A stretch of 64,000 bases of DNA, taken from the NCBI GenBank assembly GCA_963737065.1, contig CAVTRC010000002.1, forward strand, positions 64,001-128,000. The letters are read 5' to 3'. Below, in pieces: positions 45,001 through 51,000 of the stretch; the stretch's first letter is position 1; the number at the start of each line of letters is the position of its first letter. Position numbers: made by a program. Source of the DNA: Candidatus Eremiobacteria bacterium (GTDB lineage: Bacteria > Vulcanimicrobiota > Vulcanimicrobiia > Vulcanimicrobiales > Vulcanimicrobiaceae).

Positions 45001-48000
45001 CAGCCCAACATATTGCAATCGTGCGCGTTTCGAATATCAACGACGCGATTCGTCAAATCAAGAAGGCGGGCGTTTGGGTTGCCGGCGCCCATGCCGGCGA
45101 AAGTTCCGTCGACGTGAGCGAGGCGGATTTCAATCGCGACATCGCGCTCGTTATTGGTGCAGAGGGCGAGGGACTCGCGCAGCTCGTGCGGCGTGAGTGC
45201 GACTACTTGGTACGCATTCCGATGCGTGGGGTCATTGAATCGTTGAATGCCTCGGTTGCTGCCGGCGTGTTAATGTACGAAGTCGTCCGACAAAGATTGC
45301 AGCAAGCCGCATCAGTCCACAGCTAATCCCCAACATTATGCTTGCGTTATCCTTGACGCGAGAAGGACCCCCTCCTATAATCACGTGGATGTGTCGCGTT
45401 CGACGGACTGCGGCCCGCGTGTTTCGGCACAGCGACTACCACGAGGCGTTAATTACATGGCTATGACCCATCCTGTTCCGGATGGATTGGAGTACAACGA
45501 GAGAGCCGACGAAGATCTCGTTGCCATCGCGAAATCGGGCGACAACCTGGCGATGGAGTACCTGCTCAACAAGTACAAAAACTTCGTTCGAATCAAGGCC
45601 AAGAGCTACTTCTTGATCGGCGCGGACCGTGAGGACATCATTCAAGAAGGAATGATTGGCCTCTATAAAGCCGTGCGTGACTTCAAAGCGGATAAGCTTT
45701 CAAGCTTCCGTGCGTTTGCTGAGCTATGCATCACCCGCCAGATCATTACGGCGATTAAGACGGCGACGCGCCAGAAGCACATTCCGCTTAACCAATACAT
45801 CTCACTGAACAAGCCGATCTACGACGAGGACAGCGAGCGCACGCTTCTCGACGTGATGGCCTCGCAAAAAACCTCGGATCCCGAGGAACTGGTCGTCACG
45901 CAAGAAGTCTCCGACGATATCCGCCAGCGCATCCGCCAAAATCTCTCCGAGCTGGAATCGCAGGTCTTGGAATCATACCTGGAAGGCAAAAGCTACCAAG
46001 AGATGGCGCGCGATCTCGGCCGCCACGTGAAATCGATCGACAACGCGCTGCAGCGCGTGAAACGCAAGATCGAAAAGAACCTCGCGGAGTTCGAGTTCCA
46101 GTAAGCAAAGATCGCAATTCCGGTAAGCATCCAAAAGAAGAAGCCGCATCGAGACGACGATGCGGCTTTCTTGCTTAGAGCCTTGTTACATAGGCGTCGA
46201 GCCAACCCAGCACAACCGTCCAGCCCGCTTCGTGGTCATCGTACATCTCTTGATTGGGGAAGCCGGAATGCGTCAGACGAACGCGCGTCTTCCCGTTGGT
46301 CTCCGTGAGATCGAACCGGACGACGGTTTCGGTCGGTTCCCCGAACCGATTGTGAATCCAGGTGAATTCCAGCACGTTCGGCGGTTCGATCAGCCGGTAC
46401 ACGCCGTGGACGCAATGATCCTCCGGAATACTGCTGACCATTTGCCATCTTCCGCCGACGTGAACGTCCGCCTCAAAAGACTCGAGCCGGTGCATATCGT
46501 TGTTCCACCACTCGGAAAGTTCGGACGGGTCTGTGAGCGCTGCGAAAACCTTTGCAGCGGGCGCATCGATGTCGATCTCTTTGACGATCGCGGGAAGGAC
46601 TTGAGTCGTACTCATCGTTTATTCTCCACGTGGGCTTTGAGACGCGCAAGACTGCGATCCCAGAAGTGCTTGTAGTCGTCGAGCCAGGCGTCCACGCATT
46701 TGAGCGGTTCCGGATTGAGTTCGCACATGCGCGCGGCTCCCTGCGGCGTGTCTTTTACGAGCTTCGCTTCACGCAAGATGCGTAAGTGTTTAGAGATTGC
46801 AGGACGGCTCGTGTGAAAATTCGCGGCCAAATCGCCGACGGTACAGGCGCCGTTTCGCAAGATGCCGAGGATCTCGCGGCGGGTCGGATCGGCGAGGGCC
46901 TTGAAGACAAGATGTGAGGTAACCATTCGGTTACGCATATGGTAGCCGAATGGTTACGAATCGTCAACCGGCTTGACCGGCAATTCTGTCTGTTTGCATA
47001 AGCGACGGACCGTCGTCTCGTCGTCGGTCGGGCAAGCTACGTTCGCGCTGCGCGTACAGACGCGCCAGGCCGACGCAGAACTCTCCGCACACGGGCGGAA
47101 CCCGCTTCAGGTCTTACTTTCGTTGATGGAGTCCGAAGTAATTTCCGTCAGGGTCTTGGCACCACTCGGAAAAACACGGGTCGCCCGTCCCGAACCGCTT
47201 GACGTAGGTTCCACCAAGTTCCACGACGCGTTTGCGCAGTGTTTCCGCATCCTCCACGCCGAACACGACCCCGCCCGTAGGAGTGAATTCTGTTGCTTCC
47301 GGGTCGCGTCCAATTGCAAGCGTATTCCCGTCGGGCAAATCGTACTCCACGTAAAAATCCTGGTACTCCACCGACGCTTTGAGGTTGAGAAGCGCCTCGT
47401 AGAACGTGCGCAATTTGTGCATATCGCGCGTTTGAACGATGACGAAATCGAAACCGCGCGTCAACGGTTCAGTGCTGGTTGTACTCATACCGTTATACTA
47501 ACCGACCAATCCTGACATTTACCGTCAGGATTGTCCCTTGCCTCCCATTCGCTCGACGATGACGTCGTAGACCGCCCGTTTTTCATCGAGCGGATCGACG
47601 ACCATTACCTGCGCACGATCGCCGTTCTTCGGATCGAGGCAGACGGTCACTTTGCCTTTCGCGCACACGTCCATGCAACTCGTCGAAATCACGCGAACCG
47701 GTCCCCATTCGCCATGCTCTTTTAGCGCTGCTTTGAGCCAGTTGCGTAGATTAAAATCGCCGATGCGTTCGGCGATGTCCGGATCTTCTTCAGGGATACG
47801 TTCTTTGAAACACCGCTCGCACACGAGCACGAGGCCGCTGCTGAGCCATTTCGGTTTGACGGGCTGCATGGGGCGCTCACACTTGCGGACTCGTTTCGCA
47901 TTCCCCTTTATCACCGCGCACGAACGGCGCATCGTAATGAAAGCGGAGCCGACGGCCGGATTCGAACCGGCGTGCTCTTTCGAGGCGCAATTACAAATCG

Positions 48001-51000
48001 CGTGCTTTCAACCGCTCAGCCACGTCGGCGTATGTACCCGTCTTGTGTCGGGACGTTCGGTTCAACGAGGTCGTCGAGGGTCCTTGGAACCGGCGACCGC
48101 GCTACGGCGCGCTGCGGCTTTTCGTCGGACATTCACCTTGTATGGGATTGTGTTTCCCGCCGAGCCGGTTGCCTCGACCTTGCCCTTGATTCAGCGCTCG
48201 GTATGTCGGAGTGAGCGAGTGGCGCAATCGCCATCGACGTGTTCCACTTCGAGGGGAATTCGCGCCGTCTTCGGGTGACGTTCACACCACCCGCAGCGAC
48301 GCAACGATGGGTTCTGCTACGGCTCACATCTAAACCGAAGCCAAAAAACGATGCATCACATCTGCGAACGCGTCGAAATTGGTGCGGTGCAAGTTGTGCC
48401 CTTCGCCTTCGAAGGCTTTTATGTGGACGCTCGGGGAGTGATGTTGTTCAACGTATTCGATGACCGGCTCAGGGACGATCGAGCCTTCTCGTCCCGCCAT
48501 CGCGAGAAGAAGCGGCTTGCTATAGTGTGCGATATCGCCCCGCAGATCCCAAGCCGAAGCATCATTCTCATCGCGTAAGCGTTCGATCGGCCCCGTTGTC
48601 ATCGTGTGCACGGCATGGACCTTTCCCTCAACGTCGTCGGGATGCCAATCGGCGTACTCTGCGCGCGTCGCGCTATCGCGCGCGTCGCCCGTGTCCGCGA
48701 AGCTTTCGGCGAGTTCCGAGACGTACTCGTCGTACCACGCGCGATCGACTTGAACGATCATCGGATCGACCGCAACGACGCCGCGCACATCGAGCACCTC
48801 GCCGGCGCGGATAACGACCGCGCCGCCCCACGAATGACCCACGAGAACATCTACGCCGCCGACCGCAGATGCGACATTCAAGCAGTCTTGCACGCCACGC
48901 TGCAGCGTCATCGGGCCGGCAATATCCGCGCTGTCGCCGTGACCGCGCTGATCGTAGGCAACAACTCGATAGCGATCGCTGAAGCGTTGCGCGAGACGAA
49001 GCCAGGAGAGGCGGGAGCTCGTCATGCCGTGCACGCACAACATGACGGGTCCCGACGATCCCCATCGTTCGACGGTTGTAGTCGCGCAGTCGTCGAGCGT
49101 GACGATCATGTGTCAGGTTTTGAGCATTTCACGTGCGGCATTCCATCCGGGAGCGCCCATCACGCCGCCGCCCGGATGCGCGGCCGAACCACACATGTAG
49201 AGATTTTTGATCGGGGTCTTGTAGTTCGCGTAACCGGGAACCGGACGGAACATATAGAGATTATGAAACGGCATCGTTCCCTGGAAAATATTCCCACCGG
49301 TGAGGCCGAACTTTTCCTCGATGTCGACCGGCGTTAGAATCTGCCGGTCGATCACCGAGTCCTTGAATCCGGGCGCGTGTTGTTCGATGATGTCGAAGCA
49401 GCGGTCGGCGAAACGGTCTCGCATCTCTTGCGTCCACGCTCCGCTCTTTGGTCTATACGGCGCGTACTGCACGAACATCGACATCAAATGTTTGCCCGCC
49501 GGCGCAACCGTCGAATCGAGCGACGACGGCATGCAACATTCGACGACCGGATCGCGCGACGGTTCGCCGTACTTGGCATCGTCGTACGCGCGTTCGATGA
49601 AGTCCTGATCCGGAACAAAATGCACCGTGCCGTGATGTTGCGGCCCCGGTTCGTGTCCCGGCATCGCGGTGAAGCTCGGCAAACGTTCGATTGCGACGTT
49701 TATTTTTACCGACGCACTGTCGTATGTAATGCGTGATACGGCGGCGCGGAATTCCGGGGGAAGTATGTTCGGATCGAGGAACCTCTCAAATGTCAGGTGC
49801 ATGTCGACGCCGCTCGCGATTTTCTTCGCATGAAACTCATCGCCGCTTGTCAGCGCGACGCCGCTCACGGTGCCGTTCTTCGTGAGAATCTTCGCAACTT
49901 CGGCTTGGGTACGTATCTCGACGCCGAGATCTTTGGCGGCGCGCGCAAGCGCTTGCGTCAAGCCGCCCATGCCGCCGCGCATGTAGGCCCACACGCCTTT
50001 CTTCCCGTTCGTTTCGCCCATAACGTGATGAAAGAGCACGTACGCGGTTCCGGGCATCGACGGCGCCATGAACGCGCCGATGATCGCGTCCGTCGCAATC
50101 GTTCCTTTCAATTCTTCGCTTTCGAACCACCGGTCGAGAATCGGGCGCGCCGCGCCGGTCAGCATCTCAACGGCTTCTTGCATATCCGGGCCGAGTTTTT
50201 GCATACCGCGTCCGAGCTTACCCATCGAGAAGACGTCCCCAAGGCCCGGATGCAATACGTTCGGCGGAATCTGCGTCAACGTCGGTTCGATGATCGAAGC
50301 GACCCGTTCGAGCATCGCTTCGTACTTCGGATACGACTCCGCATCCCGTTTGCTAAACTTCGCGATTTCGGCGAGATCGCTCTGCCGGTCGCGCCCAAGC
50401 ATCAGGTACCGGCCATCGAGAAACGGCGTAAACGAGGCGGGATTCCGTTCGATCGCTTCAAATCCGTACGCCTTGAGATTCAGGTCGCGGACGATCTCCG
50501 GACGGAACAAGCTGTTCACGTATGCGGCGGTCGAGACGTTGTACCCGGGAAACGTTTCTTCGGTCACACACGCGCCGCCGACGACGTACCGGCGTTCGAG
50601 GACGAGCACTTTCCACTTCGCGCGCGCGAGATAACACGCCGTGACGAGTCCGTTGTGTCCTCCGCCGATGATGATGGCGTCATAGGTCGTGGGCATCTTA
50701 CGATGGGCCTTTCTATCGGTGTGCGTTCGGTTAAACCATGTATGTCTTCGGCGGTTCCGTCAACGACAAGATCGGACGCGAAAGCGCGAATGCGCTGATA
50801 TCACTCGGCGTCCCGCCGTCGAGCGCAAGTTCGGTCAGAATGCGTCCGATGACCGAAGCGAACTTGAACGCGTGACCCGCGCCGATCGCCACATGAACGC
50901 TCGGCGTGCCGGGGATGGTGTCGATCACGAAGTCACGGTCCGGCGTCAACGTGTAGAGACATGTTTTTATCAGGTGCAGCGGCGCATCGAGCTCCGGTAA

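Follow-up and report, generated by a model that had tools for sequence, protein, structure and literature searches.

A class II-like tRNA-Thr(UGU) represents one allele class at the conserved, structurally dimorphic thrU locus of Baltobacteraceae

In the MAG of an uncultured soil bacterium (Eremiobacterota/Baltobacteraceae; 3.08 Mb, 2 contigs, 95% complete), the tRNA-Thr(UGU) joins a class II-like core to an acceptor stem, a T arm and an anticodon loop that are those of a normal bacterial tRNA-Thr(UGU). Comparison across the family shows that the thrU locus, conserved in Baltobacteraceae, is structurally dimorphic and that this long-arm form makes up one of its allele classes. New in this analysis is that the class I and the long-arm form occupy the same syntenic locus as alternative alleles. 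The reading as a whole, that the gene specifies a sole ACA-decoding threonine tRNA with a class II-like core, charged by ThrRS and belonging to one allele class of this dimorphism, has a probability of about 0.82. To our knowledge, textbooks ascribe the long-armed shape to leucine, serine and tyrosine tRNAs and not to threonine.

Within the window (the whole 64,000-nt stretch of DNA analysed), ARAGORN called a tRNA-Thr(tgt) at 47945-48029 on the minus strand, and the Rfam family RF00005 matched 47947-48029 with 57.6 bits against a gathering score of 29. The gene (47947..48029, minus strand) measures 83 nt up to the discriminator U73 and is followed by the encoded part of the CCA end, CC only (47946-47945, minus strand), so that the 85 nt given in the genome-wide survey's note are reached only by counting these two C. 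As read from the sequence, the acceptor stem has 7 bp (GCCGACG/CGUCGGC), U8 is present, and the anticodon stem CGCGA/UUGCG carries the loop UUUGUAA with the anticodon UGU at 47993..47995 (minus strand, gene index 35-37). The T arm (GCCGG-UUCGAAU-CCGGC) has a 5-bp stem, and both it and the acceptor are identical to those of relatives' class I tRNA-Thr(UGU) and of the genome's own tRNA-Thr(CGU). The D arm, GCUGAGCGGUUGAAAGC (48004..48020, minus strand), has a stem of three pairs, G10-C26, C11-G25 and U12-A24 in gene indices, adjoined by a G.A mismatch at the 13.22 position and followed by an enlarged loop of the Ser/Tyr type. The variable region of 14 nt, C-CUC-GAAA-GAG-CA-C (47972..47985, minus strand), forms a 3-bp stem (47984-47982 / 47977-47975) under a GAAA (GNRA) loop. 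With its 7-bp acceptor, 5-bp T stem, 3-bp D stem and 14-nt variable stem-loop, the gene bears out the survey's observation of a class II-like UGU tRNA.

The fold is supported by comparison among relatives. When 9 homologues from 5 genera were aligned, 99.5% of cells were paired and both sides had changed in 13 of the 23 pairs, including two of the three variable-stem pairs, which 0 of 500 shuffles matched. Covariation was seen in all five helices, and RNAalifold independently predicted the same five. The minimum free energy fold of the single sequence was not a cloverleaf (z -1.41); tRNAs commonly miss the cloverleaf in single-sequence folding of this kind.

In the whole genome, a UGU tRNA accounts for exactly one of 51 ARAGORN calls and one of 45 Rfam tRNA matches, and the remaining Thr tRNAs carry GGU and CGU. 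This single count holds for a genome that is 95% complete, and relatives have one copy each; the claim that ACA depends on this gene is supported. For the meaning of the codon, the genome was aligned against 400 kb from a class I relative in a different genus, which gave 192 HSPs and 62,393 columns. ACA (n = 198) aligned to Thr in 49.0% and to Ser in 7.6%, compared with 50.9% and 8.3% for ACC (n = 878) and 52.1% and 8.0% for ACG (n = 2154), statistics that are insensitive to mis-serylation of a few per cent; serine codons aligned to Ser in 31-46%. As proposed before, ACA therefore appears without recoding, and its pairing with Thr, as for ACC and ACG, indicates a working tRNA-Thr. The share of ACA among Thr codons is 6.0% here and 1.3% in the class I relative, in keeping with the lower GC3, and no avoidance of ACA was found in the codon usage of the genome. 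Judged from sequence, tRNA-Thr(UGU) is a working threonine tRNA and the only ACA decoder of the cell.

This reading as a threonine tRNA agrees with the identity elements and with the synthetase. Thr identity lies in the acceptor pairs and the anticodon, and Ser identity comes mainly from the variable arm, with G2-C71 conserved, according to PMC9976931; G1-C72, C2-G71, G35 and U36 are found in tRNA-Thr(UGU). The genome has one thrS, and its ThrRS contains SAD, core and anticodon-binding domains with the editing motifs HxxxH and CxxxH intact. This single ThrRS would recognise the tRNA for charging by G35-U36 and the first acceptor pairs. At the anticodon stem, the bacterial enzyme contacts the backbone only (PMC4756836), and the long arm may be tolerated because the enzyme would touch the region where it emerges through the backbone alone. 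SerRS would probably reject the tRNA because the arm is too short and of Tyr-like geometry, and because C2-G71 takes the place of G2-C71 as second acceptor pair; the genome's four tRNA-Ser genes have variable stems of 5-6 bp, compared with 3 bp here. Since the genome's own tRNA-Ser(UGA) also has U73, the discriminator is not the reason for this rejection, whereas TyrRS and LeuRS would be expected to reject the tRNA through U73 and the anticodon. Stray Ser-tRNAThr could be removed at the ThrRS editing site.

Directly upstream of the tRNA lies the remnant of an HNH endonuclease gene (48126..48298, minus strand) in two fragments in different frames, whose translation (..HSLTPTYRALNQGQGRGNRLGG..) contains stops. 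The fragments match the intact gene of contig L500, which has a Pfam HNH match, at 75% over 24 aa and 56% over 32 aa. On the downstream side, a 135-aa ORF of no Pfam family (47525..47932, minus strand) is a conserved neighbour of tRNA-Thr(UGU) in either form; among 80 metagenome loci found via this ORF, 72 have the UGU tRNA just upstream of it. The class II tRNA-Tyr(GUA) (61059..61145, plus strand) is followed by tRNA-Gly(UCC) (61158..61231, plus strand) and an ordinary class I tRNA-Thr(GGU) (61776..61848, plus strand). As the survey had noted, tRNA-Tyr adjoins Thr(UGU) in relatives and is 13 kb away here; in relatives the two lie 100-600 bp apart, transcribed divergently or in tandem. The interval (48330..60917) holds metabolic genes for an alpha/beta hydrolase, FAD oxidoreductases, two Rieske oxygenases, a BNR protein and a TonB-dependent receptor-like protein. 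Neither this interval nor the tRNA-Thr(UGU) locus contains an integrase, and the locus is also free of phage genes.

Both flanking genes are shared with a class I genome of the same genus, and homologous flanks were found in nine sister pairs of a class I and a long-arm genome. The two alleles were 63-68% identical in all nine pairs, the neighbouring tRNA-Tyr and tRNA-Gly 98-100% identical in 3/3 pairs, and alleles of the same class 89-98% identical; within a class, the tRNA was 96-98% identical with flanks at 80%. An unbiased sample of 72 metagenome loci obtained via the flanking ORF comprised 41 long and 31 short forms, with 16 changes of form on the flanking-ORF tree and some clustering (4 of 500 shuffles were as low). 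Of 46 pairs whose downstream flanks were at least 93% identical, 2 differed in allele class. Swaps are seen even between contigs with ~98% identical flanks: over 1,038 bp, L499 and L500 share 98.5% identity, but their tRNAs are not alignable. The form changed 26 times on a ThrRS tree, which overstates the lack of clustering because its 90 genomes were hand-picked from mixed genera. These comparisons show that the class I and the long-arm alleles form separate lineages of old age with many replacements between them, and recombination would be the likeliest route of replacement.

The HNH gene upstream of the tRNA is fast-evolving and often decaying. It was present in 26 of 50 unbiased loci with at least 700 nt upstream, 15 times intact-like and 11 times decayed. 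It was found with both tRNA forms, and tRNA form against HNH lineages gave 10 changes on a tree of poor resolution, where shuffling gave 12.4 on average, so that co-segregation is not clear. We therefore only infer a role of the putative HNH endonuclease in the allele swaps.

Across the family, a variable region of at least 11 nt was found in 162 of 348 genomes, and a Thr(UGU) with this type of acceptor, whatever its form, in 317 of the 348. When only genomes of at least 90% completeness were counted, the long form was present in 97 of 190 other family genomes and in 0 of 73 from 17 other families of the phylum. It was also the sole tRNA-like UGU match in 5/5 Kiritimatiellia genomes checked. 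A pattern search of IMG/VR gave at least 120 matching stretches, and all 80 loci fetched carried the long-arm form inside phage tRNA clusters; two cultured Pseudomonas phages carry it as well. The architecture has arisen or spread also in Kiritimatiellia and in many phage tRNA clusters. Our literature search found no paper describing a class II-like tRNA-Thr, and only in that sense does the proposed status as the first class II tRNA-Thr stand; the form itself occurs commonly in genomes and phages of the public databases, and one phage copy already bears the annotation tRNA-Thr.

The origin of the long arm admits several other explanations. Neutral drift, in which ACA is rare, ThrRS ignores the core, and the variable loop and D arm wander with the arm unselected, carries some weight but is unlikely. 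ACA is only 1-6% of Thr codons, the core is no part of Thr identity (PMC9976931), and intermediate forms exist. Yet the tRNA stays 96-98% identical within an allele class where flanks are at 80%, compensatory changes maintain the arm stem, and the alleles are discrete and far older than their carrier species, which is not what steady drift predicts. Capture of a phage-type gene by Baltobacteraceae, displacing a resident class I gene, is quite unlikely. While the at least 120 IMG/VR stretches and the 80/80 loci in phage clusters speak for it, as do the recurrence of family D-arm types in phages, a family allele with an unpaired long loop that is 88% identical to a viral one, and HNH genes flanking phage copies too, the best viral match to the window's allele is only 77% identical, and the two main allele types of the family had 0 exact pattern matches in IMG/VR for their 5' halves. 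The window locus is also free of integrase and phage genes, and within the phylum the form is limited to one family at a conserved housekeeping locus.

The survey's proposal of a Thr/Tyr chimera, with D and variable arms copied from the neighbouring tRNA-Tyr, fares worse, and we hold it very unlikely. It draws on the 100-600 bp between the two genes in relatives and on the Tyr-like layout of the arm (C-GCGC-GAAA-GCGC-UA-C in Tyr, C-CUC-GAAA-GAG-CA-C in Thr), from which the Ser layout differs in its 5-6-bp stems and lack of unpaired bases before C48. UGUAA is also common to the Tyr and Thr anticodon loops (CUGUAAA and YUUGUAA), which a 1-nt register shift could interconvert. However, the D arm is 15/20 identical to tRNA-Tyr and 16-17/20 to all four own tRNA-Ser genes. 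Only the layout of the variable arm is Tyr-like, and copying of the D and variable arms from tRNA-Tyr is not supported. Every long-arm allele has GGUYGA where tRNA-Tyr has GGUUAA. Relatives' variable loops are graded (5, 6-8 and 10-12 nt unpaired, then 14 nt with a stem) on a single D-arm type, which makes a chimera unnecessary, and the same architecture occurs in phages and Kiritimatiellia, where no such neighbour is known. A serine-accepting or dual-identity tRNA, like the allo-tRNAs, which SerRS would accept because of its long arm and U73, with ACA then read wholly or partly as Ser, is extremely improbable. A long variable arm with G73 or U73 is taken as a Ser sign by Mukai et al. (PMC5389517), the genome's own tRNA-Ser(UGA) has U73, and the D arm of tRNA-Thr(UGU) is Ser-like; against this, the frequencies at which ACA aligns to Ser (7.6%) and to Thr (49.0%) cannot be told apart from those of ACC and ACG, the second pair is C2-G71 where bacterial tRNA-Ser has a conserved G2-C71 (PMC9976931), the arm has 3 bp instead of the 5-6 bp of the four tRNA-Ser genes, the acceptor/T stems are 7/5 and not 8/4 or 9/3, and the ThrRS editing motifs are intact.

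A close counterpart of the threonine tRNA favoured here is bacterial thrU. It shares UGU, G1-C72, C2-G71, the 7/5 acceptor/T geometry, A37 and the reading of ACA as Thr, but its D stem is of 4 bp and its variable loop of 5 nt, where the gene described here has a 3-bp D stem and a 14-nt variable stem-loop. In E. coli, the cluster is ordered thrU-tyrU-glyT-thrT-tufB, and relatives' Thr(UGU) likewise lies beside tRNA-Tyr, tRNA-Gly(UCC) and tRNA-Thr(GGU). With bacterial class II tRNA-Tyr it shares the 3-bp D stem with G13.A22, the D-loop size, and a short variable arm that ends in a GNRA loop and leaves two bases unpaired before C48, whereas the acceptor stem, the discriminator (A73 vs U73), the anticodon and the amino acid differ and the D arms agree in 15/20 positions. 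The allo-tRNAs and (8/4) tRNA-Ser described by Mukai et al. (PMC5389517) similarly join a long arm to a non-Leu/Ser/Tyr anticodon and likewise come from uncultured soil bacteria and phages, but allo-tRNAs have 8/4 or 9/3 stems, a tRNA-Sec-like D arm and Ser or Ala identity, and are accessory genes; tRNA-Thr(UGU) has 7/5 stems, appears to have kept its Thr identity and would be the sole decoder of its codon. Nematode nev-tRNAs also have the class II shape with class I anticodons (Gly, Ile), yet they are eukaryotic, Leu-charged (mis-decoding) and extra copies beside normal tRNAs (PMC3333845). The one annotated copy is an 87-nt gene of Pseudomonas phage HPP-Temi (PP968062.1, 16284-16370), labelled only 'tRNA-Thr', which shares UGU, 7/5 stems, U73 and the long variable arm and has an HNH endonuclease gene abutting its 5' end, as at the tRNA-Thr(UGU) locus. 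It differs as an accessory phage gene in a tRNA cluster, and is ~74-77% similar to the query used; our literature search did not find it discussed in print. Freestanding homing endonuclease genes, e.g. T4 segB, occur within phage tRNA clusters. The gene next to tRNA-Thr(UGU) resembles them as a small HNH gene beside a tRNA, patchy and decaying, with the adjacent allele replaced, but this putative HNH endonuclease gene is chromosomal and sits at a housekeeping tRNA locus.

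ARAGORN calls four tRNA genes in the window, one of which is a tRNA-Thr(UGU) on the minus strand at 47945-48029. The Rfam model RF00005 matches 47947-48029 at full length (model positions 1-71) with 57.6 bits (gathering score 29) and places an 11-nt insertion at the variable position. Read from the sequence, the 83-nt RNA consists of a 5' part, GCCGACG-UG-GCU-G-AGCGGUUGA-A-AGC-A-CGCGA-UUUGUAA-UUGCG, and a 3' part, C-CUC-GAAA-GAG-CA-C-GCCGG-UUCGAAU-CCGGC-CGUCGGC-U. The acceptor stem pairs perfectly over 7 bp, and the T stem has 5 bp. The 3-bp D stem (G10-C26, C11-G25 and U12-A24 in gene indices) has a G.A mismatch alongside, the D loop is enlarged, and the 14 nt of the variable region include a 3-bp stem, its GAAA tetraloop and, further 3', two unpaired bases and C48. 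The discriminator is U, and the CCA end is encoded as CC only. A variable region of more than 10 nt with its own stem-loop, a 3-bp D stem with 13.22 unpaired and a larger D loop are all features of class II tRNAs, whose amino acids are Leu, Ser, bacterial Tyr and Sec; the anticodon UGU and the codon meaning of this tRNA are those of Thr. Its novelty lies in this class II shape with a non-class II amino acid.

Full-length homologues were found in nine other genomes from five genera. In their alignment, a hand-written class II cloverleaf has 99.5% of cells paired, with both-sided changes in 13 of 23 pairs across all five helices, including two of the three pairs in both the variable stem and the D stem. 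None of 500 shuffles reached any of five covariation measures, and the signal was lost on sliding the partners. RNAalifold, run without a supplied structure, returned exactly the hand-written cloverleaf. As minimum-free-energy folding of the single sequence gave no cloverleaf (z -1.41), the structure was taken from the comparative data. A sigma-70 promoter scan, which is uninformative for this phylum, gave 0 sites near the gene. In the genome (3.08 Mb in two contigs, 60% G+C, 95% complete), ARAGORN makes 51 calls and the Rfam tRNA model 45 matches, among which a single tRNA carries the anticodon UGU; the remaining Thr tRNAs are GGU and CGU. The same assembly holds one tRNA-Sec, at 1161352-1161445 of its other contig, C1, and ARAGORN -m found neither a tmRNA gene nor a tRNA-Leu(UAA) in it.

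To be charged with threonine, a tRNA relies on the acceptor pairs G1-C72 and C2-G71 and on G35 and U36 of the anticodon, with position 73 of little weight, according to the pertinent section of PMC9976931. All of these elements are present in Thr(UGU) and invariant in 9/9 homologues. In acceptor stem, T arm and discriminator it does not differ from the relatives' class I tRNA-Thr(UGU), and it differs little from the genome's own tRNA-Thr(CGU). The single-copy thrS gene (C1:329072-330916, locus L177) encodes a ThrRS in which SAD editing, class II core and anticodon-binding domains are all present and the HxxxH and CxxxH editing motifs are kept. The protein starts at the SAD domain, without an N-terminal TGS domain, and does so family-wide (L177, L201-L288); homologues are 69-89% identical and share this N-terminal limit. 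Their domain set does not differ between class I and long-arm genomes, giving no sign at that level of ThrRS co-adaptation to the tRNA form. Bacterial ThrRS touches the anticodon stem via the backbone only, through the second subunit, in the structural account that PMC4756836 gives of this region. Because these backbone-only contacts lie near the exit of the arm, ThrRS should accept the long-arm tRNA.

The other synthetases that handle long arms should meet the wrong determinants. tRNA-Ser has G2-C71, a 5-7-bp variable stem and usually G73, whereas Thr(UGU) combines C2-G71 with a 3-bp stem and U73. Position 73 does not bar SerRS, since the genome's own tRNA-Ser(UGA) (C1:2347463-2347550) has U73, although the three remaining tRNA-Ser genes have G73. 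All four have GGAGAGG or GGAGAGA acceptors and arms of 5-6 bp with no unpaired bases before C48, compared with 3 bp and two unpaired bases in Thr(UGU). tRNA-Tyr is marked by A73, G34 and U35, in place of which Thr(UGU) carries U73, U34 and G35, and the genome's Tyr and Leu tRNAs both have A73. From these sequence features we infer that ThrRS should charge long-arm Thr(UGU) and that SerRS, TyrRS and LeuRS should not.

The meaning of ACA was assessed by aligning ORFs of this genome with blastp to 400 kb from a relative of another genus that carries class I tRNA-Thr(UGU), which gave 192 non-overlapping HSPs (62,393 columns, median identity 54%). ACA (n=198) faces Thr in 49.0% and Ser in 7.6% of positions, close to ACC (n=878; 50.9% and 8.3%) and ACG (n=2154; 52.1% and 8.0%), with ACU (n=116) at 45.7% and 12.1%; Ala stands opposite ACA in 10.6%. 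Serine codons, six in all, stand opposite Ser in 31-46% of cases and opposite Thr in 4-10%, and TAC faces Tyr in 63.6%. The genome-wide survey's note had read ACA as threonine from codon statistics, and this separate alignment independently confirms them, with ACA behaving like ACC and ACG. ACA makes up 3.3 per 1000 codons and 6.0% of Thr codons here, versus 0.66 per 1000 and 1.3% in the class I relative, a difference in line with GC3 (0.72 versus 0.86). ACA being commoner here, the long-arm tRNA has a larger, not a smaller, load of ACA codons to decode. That Thr(UGU) works as a tRNA-Thr is well supported by the comparative and codon evidence, although codon statistics, here as in the note, would miss low-level mis-serylation.

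The gene sits in a conserved translation neighbourhood of cysS, a SpoU-type methylase, an ECF sigma factor, Thr(UGU) and a 135-aa ORF (47525..47932, minus strand). Beyond the ORF and the tRNA lie 13 kb of metabolic genes (48330-60917: a hydrolase, FAD oxidoreductases, two Rieske oxygenases, a BNR protein and a TonB-dependent receptor-like protein) and then tRNA-Tyr, tRNA-Gly(UCC) and tRNA-Thr(GGU). In relatives, Thr(UGU) is 0.1-2 kb from this Tyr-Gly-Thr(GGU) group, which is the gene order of the E. coli cluster thrU-tyrU-glyT-thrT. Across the window's genus, 7-20 kb of metabolic genes separate Thr(UGU) from the divergent Tyr gene, whereas in other genera the two are neighbours. Even between this genome and two congeners, the immediate flanks are not the same.

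Short class I and long-arm alleles occupy the same locus. A class I genome of the same genus has both genes that flank Thr(UGU) here, at 62% identity over 259 aa on one side and 75-82% on the other. In nine sister pairs with opposite forms, both flanks are homologous, at 75-92% DNA identity, and homology picks up again within the T arm. In all nine, the Thr(UGU) alleles are only 63-68% identical, whereas tRNA-Tyr and tRNA-Gly are 98-100% identical in 3/3 pairs; within a class, allele identity is 89-98% even when the flanks reach only 80%. The allele classes must therefore long predate the species in which they are found. A ThrRS tree of 81 genomes requires 26 changes of the long state, of which well-supported branches force at least 19. 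This is close to the shuffled mean of 27.1, an apparent randomness inflated by hand-picking the genomes from mixed genera. An unbiased sample was obtained from metagenome contigs drawn via the flanking 135-aa ORF. In 72 of its 80 loci, a UGU tRNA lies just upstream of the ORF, 41 being long (80-87 nt) and 31 short (72-75 nt). The ORF tree requires 16 changes of form, at least 5 of them forced (shuffled mean 21.9; 4/500 shuffles as low), which points to some clustering and many switches. Among 46 locus pairs with downstream flanks at least 93% identical, two differ in allele class. In one pair of different form, loci L499 and L500, identity is 98.5% over 1,038 bp from the ORF on, while the tRNA and the 60-nt spacer are unalignable and the upstream gene is only 77% identical. 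In Baltobacteraceae, then, long-arm and class I forms make up an old dimorphism, actively exchanged, at a tRNA locus that is essential, single-copy and adjacent to an HNH endonuclease gene.

Within the family, a covariance model gave an 82-84-nt match of at least 76 bits in 39 of 151 evenly drawn genomes, with all other tRNAs at 75 bits or less. A pattern search of 348 family genomes, including some flagged unpublished (among the matches G162, G129, G148, G329 and G339), found a Thr(UGU) of this acceptor type in 317 and a variable region of at least 11 nt in 162, from 24 of 78 genera. The long form is present in about half of the family genomes that are at least 90% complete (96/186; 97/190 besides the genome studied here). 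Among the 150 matches listed, seven have unpaired loops and two a 2-bp stem, and the rest can pair at least 3 bp. By a hand tally of the 38 genera with at least two genomes, 13 are mixed, 5 all long and 20 without the long form. Since it occurs in 0/73 genomes at least 90% complete from 17 other families of the phylum, and outgroup genomes have 5-nt variable loops, the long form is derived within the family. Each genome has one Thr(UGU) gene except four with two short forms each (G117, G283, G091 and G132). A co-occurrence of both forms in G021 and G319 was rejected, as the second pattern matches are chance non-tRNA sequence.

Beyond the family, a pattern scan of genome contigs gave at least 115 stretches; of the 80 loci fetched, 78 carry a long UGU tRNA according to ARAGORN. 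Besides Eremiobacterota, they include about 20 Kiritimatiellia gut or rumen MAGs with the allele GCCGGGG...AUCCGCAAGGACG..., one MAG each labelled Acetobacteraceae, Rhodospirillales, Spirosomataceae, Planctomycetota, Clostridia, Eubacterium saphenum and Blackburnbacteria, and tRNA arrays in Betaproteobacteria. The long form is the only tRNA-like UGU match in 5/5 Kiritimatiellia genomes and stands beside a class I copy in three non-Kiritimatiellia MAGs. Three MAG contigs labelled Acidiferrales or Acidoferrum (Acidobacteriota; L077, L116 and L117) carry a Thr(UGU) near-identical to Baltobacteraceae alleles, and their labels or binning may be inconsistent. Two Betaproteobacteria/Azoarcus MAG contigs (L066 and L097) hold dense arrays of 14-15 tRNA genes in 2 kb, which include a 91-nt Ile(UAU), four Leu-anticodon tRNAs of class I length (75-78 nt) and one normal Leu(UAA) of 87-88 nt.

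Phages are a further source. At least 120 stretches of IMG/VR match the long-arm pattern, and all 80 fetched loci have an 80-90-nt UGU tRNA, in most cases as part of a phage tRNA cluster; the contigs reach 524 kb. Two cultured phages carry it: Pseudomonas phage HPP-Temi, with an 87-nt gene annotated 'tRNA-Thr' in whose 5' end an HNH endonuclease CDS ends, and vB_PpS_SYP, where the copy is unannotated. None of the viral alleles sampled exceeds 77% identity to that of the window, and the two main family allele types have 0 matches on IMG/VR contigs. The allele of a 'Planctomycetota' MAG (L064) is 100% identical to a viral one (L375), and that of a 'Clostridia' MAG (L086) is 96% identical to another (L370); both MAG contigs are probably prophage or phage DNA. 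In the viral loci (L313-L392, and L433 for HPP-Temi 16377-16464), further long tRNAs with class I anticodons, listed as 83-93 nt, stand beside Thr(UGU), namely Phe(AAA) (87 nt), Lys(UUU) (91), Lys(CUU) (85), Arg(UCU) (90), Arg(CCU) (93), Asn(GUU) (83-87), Met(CAU) (85-86), Val(UAC) (87), Ile(UAU) (91) and Cys (81-84). Among phage isoacceptors, long variable arms may be widespread. The long-arm gene reported by the genome-wide survey's note is real and, with the family, Kiritimatiellia and phages, more widely spread than was seen there.

As to the origin of the arm, that note proposed a Thr/Tyr chimera, with the D and variable arms copied from tRNA-Tyr. The layout of the variable arm is indeed Tyr-like, yet over 20 nt the D arm is nearer to Ser(GGA) and Ser(UGA) (17/20) and to Ser(CGA) and Ser(GCU) (16/20) than to Tyr (15/20), with Leu and class I Thr tRNAs at 13-14/20 each. 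Thr(UGU) thus resembles class II tRNAs generally, with no specific signal of a Tyr donor. Loop lengths are also graded. The D-arm type GGCUCAGCGGCGACAGC (3-bp stem, C.C) occurs in the family with variable regions of 5 nt, of 6-8 nt, of 10-12 unpaired nt and of 14 nt with a stem, and other alleles pair a class II-like D arm with a 5-nt loop. This series and the mixed alleles make a stepwise route to the long arm available, and the chimera is a possible but unsupported origin. Replacement of the 3' half via an integrase att site was rejected for this genome, there being no integrase or prophage at the window locus. In a Candidatus Blackburnbacteria MAG (L096), Thr(UGU) joins a class I D arm (4-bp stem, AGUGGUA loop) to a 17-nt variable arm with a GCAA loop, and is a different route to a long arm.

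The exchange of alleles directs attention to the gene upstream of Thr(UGU), an HNH endonuclease of about 200 aa on the same strand that stops 0-150 nt short of the tRNA or runs into its start. The intact homologue in L500, an ORF of 211 aa, scores 22.2 bits against Pfam HNH (cut-off 21.4) and has the motif EHIDGDWRNN...LLCPNCH; in the window, a decayed remnant in two frames with stops lies at 48126-48298. Of the 50 unbiased loci whose upstream sequence reaches 700 nt or more, 15 have an intact-like gene, 11 a partial or decayed one and 24 none (7, 4 and 16 of the 27 loci with the long tRNA; 8, 7 and 8 of the 23 with the short one). The HNH tree does not track the tRNA form (10 changes, shuffled mean 12.4, 34/500 shuffles as low), and gives no support to movement of HNH gene and tRNA as one cassette. 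A gene that is present, decayed or lost next to a recombining marker fits what one expects of homing endonuclease genes, and we hypothesize that the HNH gene might drive the allele swaps. An HNH-like stretch on C1 (513365-513544, plus strand), 45% identical over 62 aa to the L500 protein, lies directly upstream of tRNA-Gln(CUG) and tRNA-Glu(CUC) (C1:513593-513744); HNH genes may be tied to tRNA genes more generally in this genome. At a probability of roughly 15%, the extra arm is a scar of genetic conflict that shapes Thr(UGU) alleles, with ThrRS editing permitting the arm. On this unlikely reading, an HNH homing endonuclease, phage-host nucleases that target tRNAs, or both would select for a remodelled core of the Thr(UGU) gene or RNA. 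The remodelled parts, namely the D arm, anticodon stem and variable region, would be exactly those where ThrRS does not look, and class I and long-arm alleles would be held as a long-lived, horizontally swapped polymorphism. Thr would then perhaps be the sole class I identity able to bear a Ser/Tyr-like arm, as ThrRS editing already destroys Ser-tRNAThr. If true, ThrRS editing would explain why the arm recurs in Baltobacteraceae, Kiritimatiellia and hundreds of phages.

Whatever its cause, the long arm makes this a structural variant of tRNA-Thr that is new and that recurs in two bacterial lineages and in many phages. It joins a class I identity and the role of sole decoder to a class II architecture and coexists with the normal form in sister species. 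It thereby offers a natural, replicated experiment on the tRNA core as read by ThrRS, SerRS, TyrRS, LeuRS, EF-Tu, modification enzymes and defence nucleases that cleave tRNA. It bears on how tRNAs change class, as tRNA-Tyr once did, and raises the question of why an essential single-copy tRNA gene is a hotspot of allele replacement. Phage HPP-Temi provides a cultured entry point, and the alleles are a natural scaffold family for orthogonal tRNA design. Long-arm Thr sequences are already public, at least one of them annotated as tRNA-Thr without comment. We found no description of a class II tRNA-Thr with 7/5 stems in the literature, whose supplementary tables, outside the scope of the search, might list such genes, nor in the portions covered of the tRNAscan-SE 2.0 preprint, PMC13092985, PMC10264068 and PMC13056530. 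In their sections on tRNA classes, the reviews PMC9976931 and PMC7609411, like textbooks, confine class II to Leu, Ser, bacterial Tyr and Sec. The exceptions known, and the nearest systems, are the long-arm tRNAs with odd anticodons of Mukai et al. (allo-tRNAs), which have 8/4 or 9/3 stems and Ser or Ala identity in the part of that work concerned (PMC5389517), and the nematode nev-tRNAs, charged with Leu according to the corresponding part of PMC3333845. Thr(UGU) differs from the allo-tRNAs in geometry, with a 7/5 rather than an 8/4 or 9/3 acceptor/T arrangement. Moreover, allo-tRNAs and nev-tRNAs are accessory genes with a changed amino acid, whereas Thr(UGU) keeps threonine and is the only decoder of ACA.
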